Of a DNA stretch of 22,624 bases, positions 12,001-15,000 are shown in pieces. Position numbers: made by a program. This stretch comes from a virus (lineage: Duplodnaviria > Heunggongvirae > Uroviricota > Caudoviricetes): IMG/VR virus record IMGVR_UViG_2521172589_000007, one strand, 5' to 3'. How positions within the stretch are numbered: the stretch's first letter is position 1; each line of letters starts with the position of its first letter.

Positions 12001-15000
12001 AAAGTCTTCAATTTTCGCACCACGCACCTGCTGGTGAGTGCTCGGTTTATCTACCGGCACCGGCACCTCAGTATCCGGAACATCGGTTATGGTCTGGCGA
12101 TTATCCCCGGTCTGTCTGCGTGCTTCTGCCTGCTGTGCCAGTTCCGGAAGGGAGTCACGAACCATACGAGGGAGTGATTCAGGCTGTGGCATATCAACCC
12201 CACGCTGACTTTCAGGTGCAGGAAGTCCTTCACGCACTGGTGCTGTGGCGTTCTGCTCATCCGGTGACGGCAGACCACGACGAACTGTTTCGCCCTCCAG
12301 TATTTCCCCCTGGCGACCAGCGGCATTTTCCGGTGCCTGCTCACGTCCTTTCTGGAAACTCTGGCCCTTCACCTCACCGGTTGTGGTAAAACGACCACCA
12401 CGTCCGGCCTGATTTTCATCCGGCGTACGCGCCACTTCTCCTGGTAACGGATATCCCTGTCCGGGATGAATATCGCCGGGAGCGGGAAGGCGTGGACGCT
12501 CAGTTAACTCCTGTGCTGTCGGACCGGCATCACCTTCAGCCATCTGGGAACGCACCAGTTCTTCCGCCGTCGGCGCGTTGCCACGGGCAAGACGGGCCTG
12601 CACTTCTGTATCATCCCCCGTAAAACCACGGAATCGCGGGTCACGCATGAACGCGGGCTGTTCCATCGGATCAGCATCAGTAATACGCTCTCCGTCAGCC
12701 AGAGTGTTAATGGTCTCCGTTGCCACATCTTCAGAGAACGCAGGATTATCCATTTCAACGGCATACTGATTCTCGCCTTTCTTCACTACGGACGGTTTCA
12801 GGCCGGTGGCGCTGGCATTGCGGAAAACGTCGCTCCCCAGAGCACTTTTTTCATCCGTGAAATAACGGTTGTCCGGACGCACCTTTTCAATGCGTTCTGC
12901 TGGTCTGGACGCACCACTCTCGTTAATTTCAATACGAACTTCATCCGGATCGCGGAACCGCACCGTCGGGTAAATACTCCCGTCGCCATCATCCGCATTT
13001 TCCGGCTGTGGCTGTGCCTCCGGTCTGGCCTCCCGCTGAGGGCGAAGCACATCACGTATTGCCTGTAACTGCTGCTCTTCAGTATCAGTACGCCCTTCCT
13101 TCTGGCTGAGTTTTCGGTATTCCTCAAGCAGTTCAGGGCGCGGCTTCGCCTTCAGCTCATCCATCACCGCCTGTCGCTTCGCCTGTTCATCCAGTTCATT
13201 CAACAGCTGGCTGGCGGCTTCCCGGCGATGAACGGCAGACGTGTCTCCCTCATGTGCCATATCCGCATCAGCATACTGTTCCAGAAGCTGCTCGCGATTC
13301 ATCCCCTGCATAGATTCACGATGCTGTGCCACCGGATCAACCGGTTCGGGTTGCGGAGCCGATTCGTCCTGAGGAACGCTTTCAGCCTCACGCATGGCTG
13401 CTTCATCTGCCGCCTGACGTTTTCCACGATATCCGGCAGCCGCACCGAATGGTGCCCCCATTGCAGCACCAAGGGCTGCACCTTCGATCGTTGCGTCAGC
13501 CACGCCCTCCCACGGTGACACATCCATTCCGGCGGTCTCACGCAATGCCGTGTTTTCCTGATAGCGTGAATAGCCACCCTGCGCCGCATTAATCGTCCCC
13601 TGTTCCGTGGCATTTCTGACAATGCCGCTTTTAACGGTCTTCGCCGTGCCCCGCATCGCCAGATTAAGCAACTGAGCATCGCCCAGTTTTGCCGCCATGG
13701 CATTCACAGCCAGCAATTCAGGATCGGTTGCCAGTTGCGCACGCACCTCATCGGCAACACGCTCTTTTGCCAGGTCCATTTTCTGGCGGTCAGTAAGCTG
13801 CGCGTGCTGCGGATCTGCATCAATTGACAAAAAGGTCTGCTGAAATTTCGGTGACTTCGCCAGCTCAGAATAATCCGCGTTAAGAACAGCATCTGCCGCT
13901 GCCATTGCACTCCGCCCTTGCGCACTGACAGTGGAATGGGTGATCAGGCCTGCCTGGAAAAAATCCGGCATTTTTTTATCGACAGCTTCGGCTGCCAGTG
14001 CTGTGGCTCTTTCCGGCTGCATCCCTGCCGCGATGTATTTTTTCTCCAGCCCGGCGGTCAGCACTTTTCGCAGAGTGACATCACCCAGCTTTTTAGTCAC
14101 ACCGCCTGCAACCATATCCGGTACAAGCGCACCAATCAGGTTAACCCCTTTCGCTACCCAGACCGCTGAATCATCATATCCTTCAGTCATCGGTGTATTC
14201 AGCGCCCGCTGCGCCCCCGGCGACATCTTGCCAGTCAGCCATTCATCCGAGGCTTTAGCGCCGCCACTGACTGCCTTGCCTGTGACCTTCAGACCTTTAC
14301 CGACAGTATCAGTAACCGCATTTTTTCCATCAGGCAGAGTGTCGATGACCTCATCCGCCCCCTTGCTGCCACCGACAAAAATATCCTGAACAGTTGCTAC
14401 TCCCGGCAGCCCCATACGGCTGAACTCATTTAAAATACGTGCCCCTGTTTTTACCGGGCTCTGAATCATCGCATCACCGAGTCCACGGGCCATTTCCCCT
14501 GTCCCCCGGACGGACTGGGCGACACCTTTCCCCATAGTTGGCAATACATCGCCCAGGCTGAACGACGTGCTGTTGTCCTTCCAGCGATTGGGATCGGAGA
14601 AAAACACATCATAGCTGTCAGTCTCTCCCGGCTGCTGAATGTTCAGGCTGTTGCGGCTCTGGTTGCCAAATTGCGCTTCAGGGCGCTGTTCATCGGAATA
14701 AGCCATACAGACTCCATAAAAAAACCCGGCACAATGACCGGGTATCAGGAAATAGTATTAACGGGAATGGTGAATTACTGCGCGTAATTCTGTTTCAGAC
14801 CACGGATAAACTCAGATGCAGAGGCCGCGCTATCATCCCTGGCCTGTTCCCCCCTGGCCTTTTGAATACGGAGAAAATTCGCATACCCGTGTTCCAGCAA
14901 TTTCTGATTCTGAGGCTCCAGCATTTCTGGCTGACGGGAGGCCACTTCTCTGGCAAATGCCTGCTTATCCGGATCATCACCCGCCCAACTGGTAATCCCT

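Follow-up and report, generated by a model that had tools for sequence, protein, structure and literature searches.

The ejection proteins of podophages, such as gp14, gp15 and gp16 of T7, gp7, gp16 and gp20 of P22 and the virion RNA polymerase gp50 of N4, are large proteins stored in the capsid. They must leave it through the narrow portal and tail channel, probably in a partly unfolded state, and exert their action in the host's envelope or cytoplasm. Polyvalent proteins, as set out by Iyer et al. 2017 (J Bacteriol 199:e00245-17), are also proposed to enter the host with the DNA, and those of the LPD38 class unite LPD5, LPD1, MuF_C, LPD38 and HExxH modules in one giant late-gene chain. The same arrangement is found in a protein of 2,783 amino acids (aa) encoded in the 22,624-nucleotide stretch of viral DNA analysed here (IMG/VR record IMGVR_UViG_2521172589_000007; the window, in what follows, is the whole of this stretch), and its orthologue in phage phi24B, gp47, has been proposed to be a capsid-packaged ejection protein analogous to those of podophages (2026 preprint). 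Our subject is aa 430-895 of this giant protein. The region is a selected modular array within a known class of proteins, the phage polyvalent or ejection proteins, and not a repeat-rich passive spacer; we think it fairly probable that it serves as a largely disordered acidic tether with docking modules in a packaged, and probably ejected, giant protein.

The window DNA is 87-99.6% identical to 186 records of Shiga toxin (Stx)-converting and Shigella phages. It covers the late region of a short-tailed, Stx-converting prophage of the Sepvirinae together with the junction to the host; the matching short-tailed members of that group include Traversvirus and Oslovirus. Across the same records, aa 1-1,050 of the giant protein are 76.7-97.6% identical. 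Its direct orthologues are ORF80 of Sp5 (ECs1242), gp47 of phi24B and the giant open reading frame (ORF) of 933W. The Sp5 deletion study found ORF80 to be essential, its loss giving DNA-filled heads without tails and no binding of tail-fibre antibody, while gp47 was described in the 2026 preprint as abundant in purified virions and not visible in the map from cryo-electron microscopy. The published account of gp47 lists only Pfam domains and that of ORF80 only a match to the COG1483 ATPase; neither analyses aa 430-895. The interest of the protein is that it is essential in short-tailed phages which spread Shiga toxin genes and takes up ~14% of their genome.

Several differences from the described systems are apparent. 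No similarity to podophage ejection proteins was found in Pfam, PDB sequence or Foldseek comparisons, and here one chain of 2,783 aa, for which ejection is proposed, would combine anchor, tether and enzymes. The gene is phage-encoded, lies beside late and structural genes (those nearby fall into the families of tail fibre proteins, Lom and virion structural proteins) and encodes several LPD/MuF domains in one chain plus two HExxH motifs, the features by which polyvalent proteins are recognised. In the passages of Iyer et al. 2017 that were searched, the domains are described and the terms for linkers and for regions of low complexity or disorder do not appear (0 occurrences). The N-terminal domain and linker modules of the window's protein have no Pfam model. 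The giant protein and the parts that lie on its N-terminal side are as follows:

6355..14706, minus strand, giant polyvalent/virion protein, 2,783 aa (ORF translation, Pfam, full-length match to phrog_616)
13420..14706, minus strand, Gly/Ala-rich N-terminal domain (N-domain), aa 1-429, ending in the glycine-zipper-like EGAALGAAMGAPFGAAAGYRGK (phmmer family)
12022..13419, minus strand, acidic P/E/Q-enriched region, aa 430-895, the probable modular tether (composition, homologue boundaries and the ratio of nonsynonymous to synonymous substitution rates, dN/dS)
13345..13419, minus strand, spacer 1, aa 430-454, acidic and Pro-rich, with P+E+Q at 44% (predicted local distance difference test score, pLDDT, below 50; composition)
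13042..13344, minus strand, predicted five-helix bundle, aa ~455-555 (AlphaFold2 pLDDT 88-95)
12895..13041, minus strand, spacer 2, aa 556-604, acidic and Pro/Gln-rich (pLDDT below 50)
12742..12894, minus strand, predicted alpha/beta mini-domain, aa ~605-655, RYFTDEKSA...VVKKGENQYAVEMD (pLDDT 63-85)
12427..12684, minus strand, module C, aa 675-760, PAFMR...DPRFRGF...EVQARLA...APTAEELV...GPTAQEL...RLPAPG (dN/dS, family profile)
12271..12504, minus strand, module D, aa 735-812, RLPAPGDIHPGQGYPLPGEV...AGRGGRFTTTGEVKGQSF (family profile; pLDDT below 50)
12022..12426, minus strand, variable Pro-rich C-terminal part, aa 761-895 (dN, gap columns)
11974..12012, minus strand, IEDFGEEIKGAAK, aa 899-911, marking where the next conserved domain, upstream of LPD5, begins (family motif)

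An earlier note on this DNA, made from the sequence alone, had described positions 12022-13419 as a long acidic, Pro/Gln/Glu-rich, low-complexity linker with degenerate short repeats, lying between a Gly-rich N-terminal domain and the HExxH modules. Its placement was right, since these positions on the minus strand are aa 430-895 of the 2,783-aa ORF and do separate the Gly/Ala-rich N-domain from the LPD5/HExxH/LPD1 modules, and alignments to distant homologues end at aa ~409-429 and resume at ~878-896. The composition was also well described: P+E+Q make up 29.0% of the region versus 14.0% of the protein elsewhere (Fisher p = 7e-14; E 11.8 versus 6.2%, P 9.2 versus 3.9%, Q 7.9 versus 3.9%), its net charge is -32 whereas that of the rest is +29, and hydrophobic residues account for 18.9% of it versus 29.0% of the rest, so that in composition it has the depletion of hydrophobics and enrichment of disorder promoters characteristic of disordered linkers. 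The P+E+Q-richest 466-aa span of the whole protein begins at aa 440. All the motifs that had been named are present, viz. GLPSPDEQ at 811, GLPAPESQ at 827, LPAPG at 740 and PQPE at 451, 566 and 840, but the repeats and the low complexity did not survive analysis. Entropy over 41-aa segments is 3.27-3.84 bits, overlapping the 3.12-3.94 bits of the flanks within the first 1,300 aa; five 4-mers are shared versus 3.1 expected from shuffling (p = 0.2) and no 5-mer recurs; and Tandem Repeats Finder returned only three trivial rows for the DNA, arrays of 15-28 nt. The only repeat-like element is the pair RRGLPSPDEQ / REGLPAPESQ, 16 aa apart within aa 809-834. An acidic DNA mimic or anti-restriction module, like Ocr or ArdA, was considered and set aside, as -32 over 466 aa is a modest charge and no matching families were found.

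Order was predicted with AlphaFold2 in two runs, the first over aa 401-960 with a 12-sequence alignment and the second over aa 660-830 with a diverse alignment of 10 sequences, including relatives from Pectobacterium, Serratia, Aeromonas and Salmonella. In the first run pLDDT fell below 50 at aa 401-447, 559-603, most of 657-846 and 865-935; in the second, aa 680-740 rose to 59-76 as a string of short helices, with a predicted template modelling score (pTM) of 0.18, and aa 740-830 stayed below 50. About one third of the region is thus predicted to be ordered, and is conserved, which is what the earlier note had named as refuting its view; the remainder is mostly below 50. The earlier view that some 470 residues lack a hydrophobic core is consequently too broad: it stands for the ~300 aa of mostly low pLDDT, and fails at aa 455-555 and 605-655, which are predicted to fold. 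The five helices of the bundle are predicted at aa 458-466, 471-482, 489-520, 523-535 and 541-554, and hold an internal pair of ELLE[QE]Y...EG motifs; the bundle is conserved in the family representatives P0072 and P0073 and in P0083 from Pectobacterium. Neither the bundle nor modules C and D have a PDB sequence match above chance level. When the AlphaFold2 model was compared with the PDB by Foldseek, the best match had E = 0.59, and similarities to small KH-like and PrgK-like folds were not significant. The mini-domain is predicted to run strand-helix-helix-strand-strand and shows the family pattern GKPF...A...GGYAV, and one further helix is predicted within the variable Pro-rich part, at aa 847-868. 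Across aa 430-895 there is no Pfam match at E up to 1, and PHROGs yields only families of 'unknown function'.

Could the region be no linker at all, being instead a series of conserved globular domains which current tools miss? The two segments predicted to fold, the purifying selection that runs throughout aa 430-895 and the shallowness of the AlphaFold2 alignments would all agree with this. Such a series of domains is nevertheless highly improbable, given that ~300 of the 466 residues have pLDDT below 50 over the two runs, with a pTM of only 0.18 from the diverse alignment, that hydrophobic residues make up 8-20% of the spacers and of modules C and D, and that distant homologues replace the intervening sequence entirely.

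The family against which the region can be compared is defined by its N-domain. A phmmer search with aa 1-429 against 1.84 billion representative proteins gave 101 matches, nearly all of them to the N-terminus of proteins of 2,000-5,500 aa, and the matches stop at query aa 400-429 (418-429 in nearly all the long proteins). Another search, indexed by words, returned only fragments of up to 830 aa, mainly from E. coli, Salmonella, Yersinia and Aeromonas, and was used for alignments only. Beyond the linker, 17 representatives of the family share the motif IEDFGEEIKGAAK (IEDFGE...), as does Shewanella phage Y11. Linker length was taken as the distance to this motif, since the embedded modules interrupt an estimate from composition; it is 356-600 aa for 12 of the 17 representatives and never shorter, a result that supports the interpretation in the earlier note. 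An acidic P/E/Q-rich stretch immediately behind the N-domain is common to the family: 48 of 55 relatives have a net acidic charge there, with mean P+E+Q of 27% versus 15.5% in the rest of the proteins. Among more distant phages, the giant protein of Vibrio phage D155 aligns to aa 161-408, 1463-1654 and 1843-2781 of the window's protein and that of Shewanella phage Y11 to aa 878-1443, but neither aligns across aa 409-877.

These observations are what would be expected of a passive spacer, in which length, flexibility and charge matter and sequence is otherwise unconstrained, as the earlier note had it: homologues cannot be aligned over aa 409-877 and yet most have an acidic P/E/Q stretch of their own there, the next conserved domain is never less than 356 aa away, and ~300 aa are at pLDDT below 50. 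A closer comparison within the family makes the passive spacer very unlikely. When 67 long members of the family were searched by phmmer with the linker, aa 411-570 and 675-868 proved to be conserved (E = 1e-37 and 2e-56 for the close relatives P0072 and P0073, 9e-11 and 2e-15 for P0083, with matches also in P0099 from Serratia and others), while the block of aa 571-674, which includes the mini-domain, is missing from the close relative P0073. Iterated profiles found the bundle in 3 family representatives, the mini-domain in 9, module C in 16 and module D in 11. Each of the four could thus be recognised in distant members of the family (E of 1e-10 to 1e-34), sometimes in two or three copies or in another order, and the confident prediction of a helical bundle also counts against a passive spacer. 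There are three copies of the mini-domain in P0145, module C is duplicated in P0085 and P0122, and module D is repeated in P0083, P0099 and P0109. The residues that do not vary in the alignment of modules C and D are the P, A and R of PAxxR and, besides these, D, Q, L, L and E.

Selection on the region argues against a passive spacer as well. By the Nei-Gojobori method, in six pairwise comparisons among Stx-phage orthologues, dN/dS was 0.14-0.19 for the whole linker, 0.09-0.20 for the N-domain and 0.21-0.24 for LPD5, whereas for aa 666-760 it was 0.01-0.06, with 1-2 nonsynonymous versus 10-19 synonymous changes. This segment is the most constrained of those compared in almost every comparison, including against the N-terminal, LPD5 and C-terminal segments. 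For aa 660-760, protein identity is no less than 95% in all 186 phage records and no less than 99% in 152 of them, and among eight diverged Stx-phage orthologues 96-98% of the columns of aa 601-750 are invariant. The same eight sequences have 7 gap columns in the linker, two in aa 551-600 and five in aa 761-895; the latter segment also has the highest dN in the linker (0.17-0.23), with dN/dS of 0.21-0.29 in the four comparisons that show divergence. The fast evolution typical of disordered linkers is accordingly not seen among the Stx phages; across genera, the spacers cannot be aligned and the modules persist.

Jumps in segment-wise dS point to recombination breakpoints near aa 760, 895 and 1190, and it may be inferred that the linker also acts as a recombination joint between exchangeable cassettes. 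As a separate observation, Stx phages that are otherwise alike carry deeply diverged alleles of two segments of the giant gene, aa 896-1190 (11137-12021, the LPD5 region) and aa 1651-1850 (9157-9756, the MuF_C region): dS is 1.7-2.6 and dN 0.25-0.30 at aa 896-1046, and dN is 0.55 at aa 1651-1850 in comparison with PhiR5_2. Both segments have the look of cassettes that can be exchanged, and diversifying pressure may act on them.

Direct evidence on the fate of the region comes from the virions of the close relative phi24B. Several linker peptides detected there are identical to the window, namely SQMAEGDAGPTAQELTERPR (139 spectral matches), GFTGDDTEVQAR (80), GNAPTAEELVR (69), LPAPGDIHPGQGYPLPGEVAR from module D (59) and, from the helical bundle, REAASQLLNELDEQAK; the phi24B variant of the GLPSPD/GLPAPE pair, RGLPSPDAQNATAPVREGLPAPDIAR, was also detected. 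As the peptides are present in virions, the linker is translated and kept in the packaged protein. Spectral counts of gp47 by gel slice are 2188, 1686, 1187, 1260, 663, 447, 478, 427, 374 ... (published supplement), while the fifth listed slice holds the peak of the 724-aa (~80-kDa) portal and the eleventh that of the 409-aa capsid protein. The largest gp47 counts come from slices above the portal peak, from which it follows that most gp47, running well above 80 kDa, is intact or very large even after the virions had been stored for six months, the tail in lower slices showing some fragmentation. The suggestion in the earlier note that such a linker is cleaved to give separate effectors therefore finds no support at the virion stage, and quantitative cleavage into small effectors before or during packaging does not occur; any such cleavage would follow ejection. 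The companion suggestion, that the protein is threaded through a channel, agrees with the published proposal for gp47 as an ejection protein, delivery itself being only proposed.

These data bear on another explanation, that the linker is a processing region, cut in the capsid or after ejection by an HExxH module so as to free an N-terminal anchor from the effectors. The modules concerned, which lie downstream of the linker, are:

aa 1047-1190, minus strand, LPD5 (Pfam, 147 bits)
10873..10887, minus strand, first HExxH, HEWFH, aa 1274-1278, between LPD5 and LPD1 (regex search)
aa 1351-1430, minus strand, LPD1 (Pfam, 81 bits)
10072..10086, minus strand, second HExxH, HEIIH, aa 1541-1545, candidate zincin peptidase site (regex search)
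aa 1740-1829, minus strand, MuF_C (Pfam, 64 bits)
aa 2466-2671, minus strand, LPD38 (Pfam, 158 bits)

All four Pfam domains score far above their cutoff of ~27 bits, and the pattern RHE[IV]LxHHG, noted for the second HExxH, recurs in family sequences. Disordered segments are natural protease substrates, and with two HExxH motifs downstream and counts of gp47 that tail into lower-mass slices, a processing role would have some appeal. In Iyer et al. 2017, moreover, metallopeptidase domains are proposed to autoprocess polyvalent proteins. We nevertheless consider processing unlikely, because the top four slices, above the portal, give the largest gp47 counts, tryptic peptides of modules C and D are abundant in the virion (among them a 41-residue peptide over aa 737-777, phi24B numbering), no discrete products have been reported, and neither HExxH reaches the Pfam threshold for a peptidase, the second having only a weak match to Peptidase_M76 (E = 0.31).

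Returning to the modular tether, the arrangement may be pictured as beads on a string, in which acidic P/Q/E spacers (aa 430-454, 556-604 and much of 761-895) alternate with the bundle and the mini-domain, and in which modules C and D would be peptide-like, probably folding only when they bind a partner. The tether would join the N-domain to the LPD5/HExxH/LPD1/MuF_C/LPD38 modules. Its spacers may supply length, and with it reach, and a flexibility suited to packaging and threading, keeping the chain off the packaged DNA and easing its passage through the portal and tail channel; its modules may be docking sites for phage or host partners which position the downstream enzymatic domains. Aa 455-555, 605-655, 675-760 and 735-812 provide defined small targets for study.

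A number of points weigh against this interpretation. The modules have no known partners, and comparisons with Pfam, the PDB and Foldseek matched none of them. The low pLDDT could reflect the shallow alignments (12 and 10 sequences), the disorder being predicted otherwise from composition, and the ejection and topology of the giant protein follow a published proposal. The heads without tails of the Sp5 deletion suggest a structural role at the portal, which a tether leaves unexplained. Finally, -32 over 466 aa is only moderately acidic, which makes repulsion from DNA a weak part of the picture.

One short segment of module C permits a more specific idea about what might be docked:

12631..12672, minus strand, short peptide motif DPMEQPAFMRDPRF, aa 679-692 (family motif)

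The family consensus is [FL]-x-D-[IVT]-P-A-[YF]-[LM]-R-[QN], or in short form D-[IV]-P-A-Y-L-R-Q, of which the window's copy is MEQPAFMRDPRF; examples from family linkers which otherwise cannot be aligned are FDEFRDIPAYLRQD, ELRDVPAYLRQDD, FADVPAFLRNSPD and LDVPAFMRDPRF. As peptides, the window's copy is TDADPMEQPAFMRDPRFRGF (with Q683, F686 and M687) and the family consensus FDEFRDIPAYLRQDPRIQGF. A relaxed form of the motif has 24 matches, spread over 22 of the 65 proteins of the family and confined to the 350 aa that follow the N-domain (median offset 92 aa), and none in the remaining 169,327 aa of family proteins, shuffled linkers giving 0.04 on average; the strict pattern D-[IV]-P-x-[FY]-[LM]-[RK] occurs in 8 family proteins. 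The motif lies in a stretch predicted to be disordered and accessible, AlphaFold2 giving a 4-residue helix with flanks at pLDDT below 50.

The resemblance is to the C-terminal tail of the division protein FtsZ, which in E. coli reads DYLDIPAFLRKQAD and in which I374 and L378 are needed to bind ZipA, FtsA, MinC and SlmA (PMC4117426). The phage motif is likewise of the D-I-P-A-F-L-R type and predicted as a short helix in a long disordered P/Q/E-rich region; it differs in being internal rather than C-terminal, in usually having Y for F and in being followed by further conserved sequence, and the window's copy has Q at the critical I374. It might accordingly be asked whether D-[IV]-P-A-[YF]-[LM]-R mimics the FtsZ tail, and would bind FtsA, ZipA, MinC, SlmA, ZapD or ClpX after ejection so as to anchor the protein at the inner membrane or division site, or delay division. 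Enrichment of the motif at a specific position in linkers that are otherwise unalignable speaks for this, as does its similar setting. When a profile of the 24 phage motifs was run against 177,635 PDB sequences the top match was the C-terminal tail of B. subtilis FtsZ (363-381), and a 14-column matrix of the motif scores the tails of E. coli and B. subtilis at 18.9 and 24.2 bits, above the maximum of 13.6 in 135,208 background 14-mers. The named or phage-derived members of the family are from gamma-proteobacteria (Pectobacterium, Serratia, Aeromonas and Photobacterium, with Vibrio and Shewanella phages), in which FtsZ tails are near-identical. Polyvalent proteins have, besides, already been proposed to target or anchor to the cytoskeleton (Iyer et al. 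2017).

There are good reasons for caution, and mimicry of FtsZ seems to us quite unlikely. The PDB match has a non-significant E of 0.27, nearly equalled by SEPDELRDIPAFYR of the folded E. coli protein CasB (E = 0.4); a score of 18.9 bits would be expected a few times by chance in each bacterial proteome (an estimate from 2^-18.9 over ~1.3 million positions); and the hypothesis was formed after the resemblance had been seen. The window's copy, MEQPAFMR, has Q at the equivalent of I374 and M at that of L378, though Salmonella relatives have I or V at the former, and about two thirds of family members are without the motif. Beyond the residues that resemble FtsZ the sequence also stays conserved (DPR-x-x-GF, followed by EVQ..L...APT.EEL), which points to another, larger binding partner. 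With the same low expectation one may imagine that the ejected virion protein docks on FtsA or ZipA at the inner membrane, or competes with FtsZ for its partners and so stalls division just after infection, and that other modules (candidates being EVQ..L...APT.EEL, RLPAPG...PGEV...AG.GPQF and GKPF...GGYAV) are host-directed too, the linker being an array of mimics. No earlier report of FtsZ-tail mimicry by a phage virion protein was found in the literature searched, within which this would, if true, be the first reported phage virion protein with peptide mimicry of a bacterial cytoskeletal tail; if the likeness is non-functional, the finding is of an ordinary interdomain linker in a known class of proteins.

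The N-domain itself, which is 11.0% G and 14.7% A, has no Pfam model (E up to 1) and no PDB sequence match beyond chance level, and seems to be a hitherto undescribed domain that is a signature of polyvalent proteins of the LPD38 type. Its glycine-zipper-like hydrophobic segment is followed by RGKR, and its family comprises ~100 representative clusters at 50% identity. In Yersinia enterocolitica (GCA_049085555.1) a 718-aa ORF (L011 10001-12157) carries the N-domain with modules C and D; it belongs to a truncated prophage remnant, present on three contigs, in which no more than the 5' quarter of the giant gene is preserved. A natural split of the gene at the end of the linker was considered for this ORF and rejected, because the locus is such a remnant and the genes that follow downstream, on the opposite strand, are unrelated. 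In the more distant phages, D155 has two copies of KTVAERR...EVQ..L.R..AP.V..L at aa ~400-560 of its own giant protein, and Y11 has three repeats of ~55 aa, D[YF]EV.PDGT...LPAPR, at aa ~380-560; taken together, these suggest that duplication of modules is a general way in which such tethers grow.

An out-of-frame ORF of 134 aa lies within the giant gene (13299-13703, minus strand), and its phi24B equivalent (50190-50591, the equivalence resting on coordinate arithmetic) has 2 spectral matches in the virion data; with no other sign of an overlapping gene, these are probably noise.

The remaining features of the window are the neighbouring genes:

14775-16040, minus strand, gene upstream of the giant gene, 421 aa, corresponding to Sp5 ORF79 and phi24B gp48
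5451-5954, 4077-4937 and 2893-3564, prophage accessory genes, taken in the order DUF551 protein, Ead/Ea22-like and AntA/AntB antirepressor
1-2397, plus strand, molybdopterin oxidoreductase (Fe4S4, Molybdopterin, Molydop_binding), a host gene by its domains

The 421-aa protein has no Pfam domain. Its Sp5 counterpart, ORF79, is essential for tail formation (Sp5 deletion study), and phi24B gp48 gave 1,634 spectral matches in virions. It is homologous to the product of the gene directly upstream of the D155 giant gene (31.5% identity, E = 6e-14), and by this comparison the 421-aa gene and the giant gene form a conserved pair. The host oxidoreductase gene at the other end indicates that the window spans the junction of prophage and chromosome, with the attachment site probably at ~2400-2890. 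Finally, G+C falls to 41-44% at ~18500-20000, versus 51-57% over the giant gene; this stretch spans genes for a Lom-like outer membrane protein and a 'membrane associated protein', and is consistent with laterally acquired accessory genes in the late operon.

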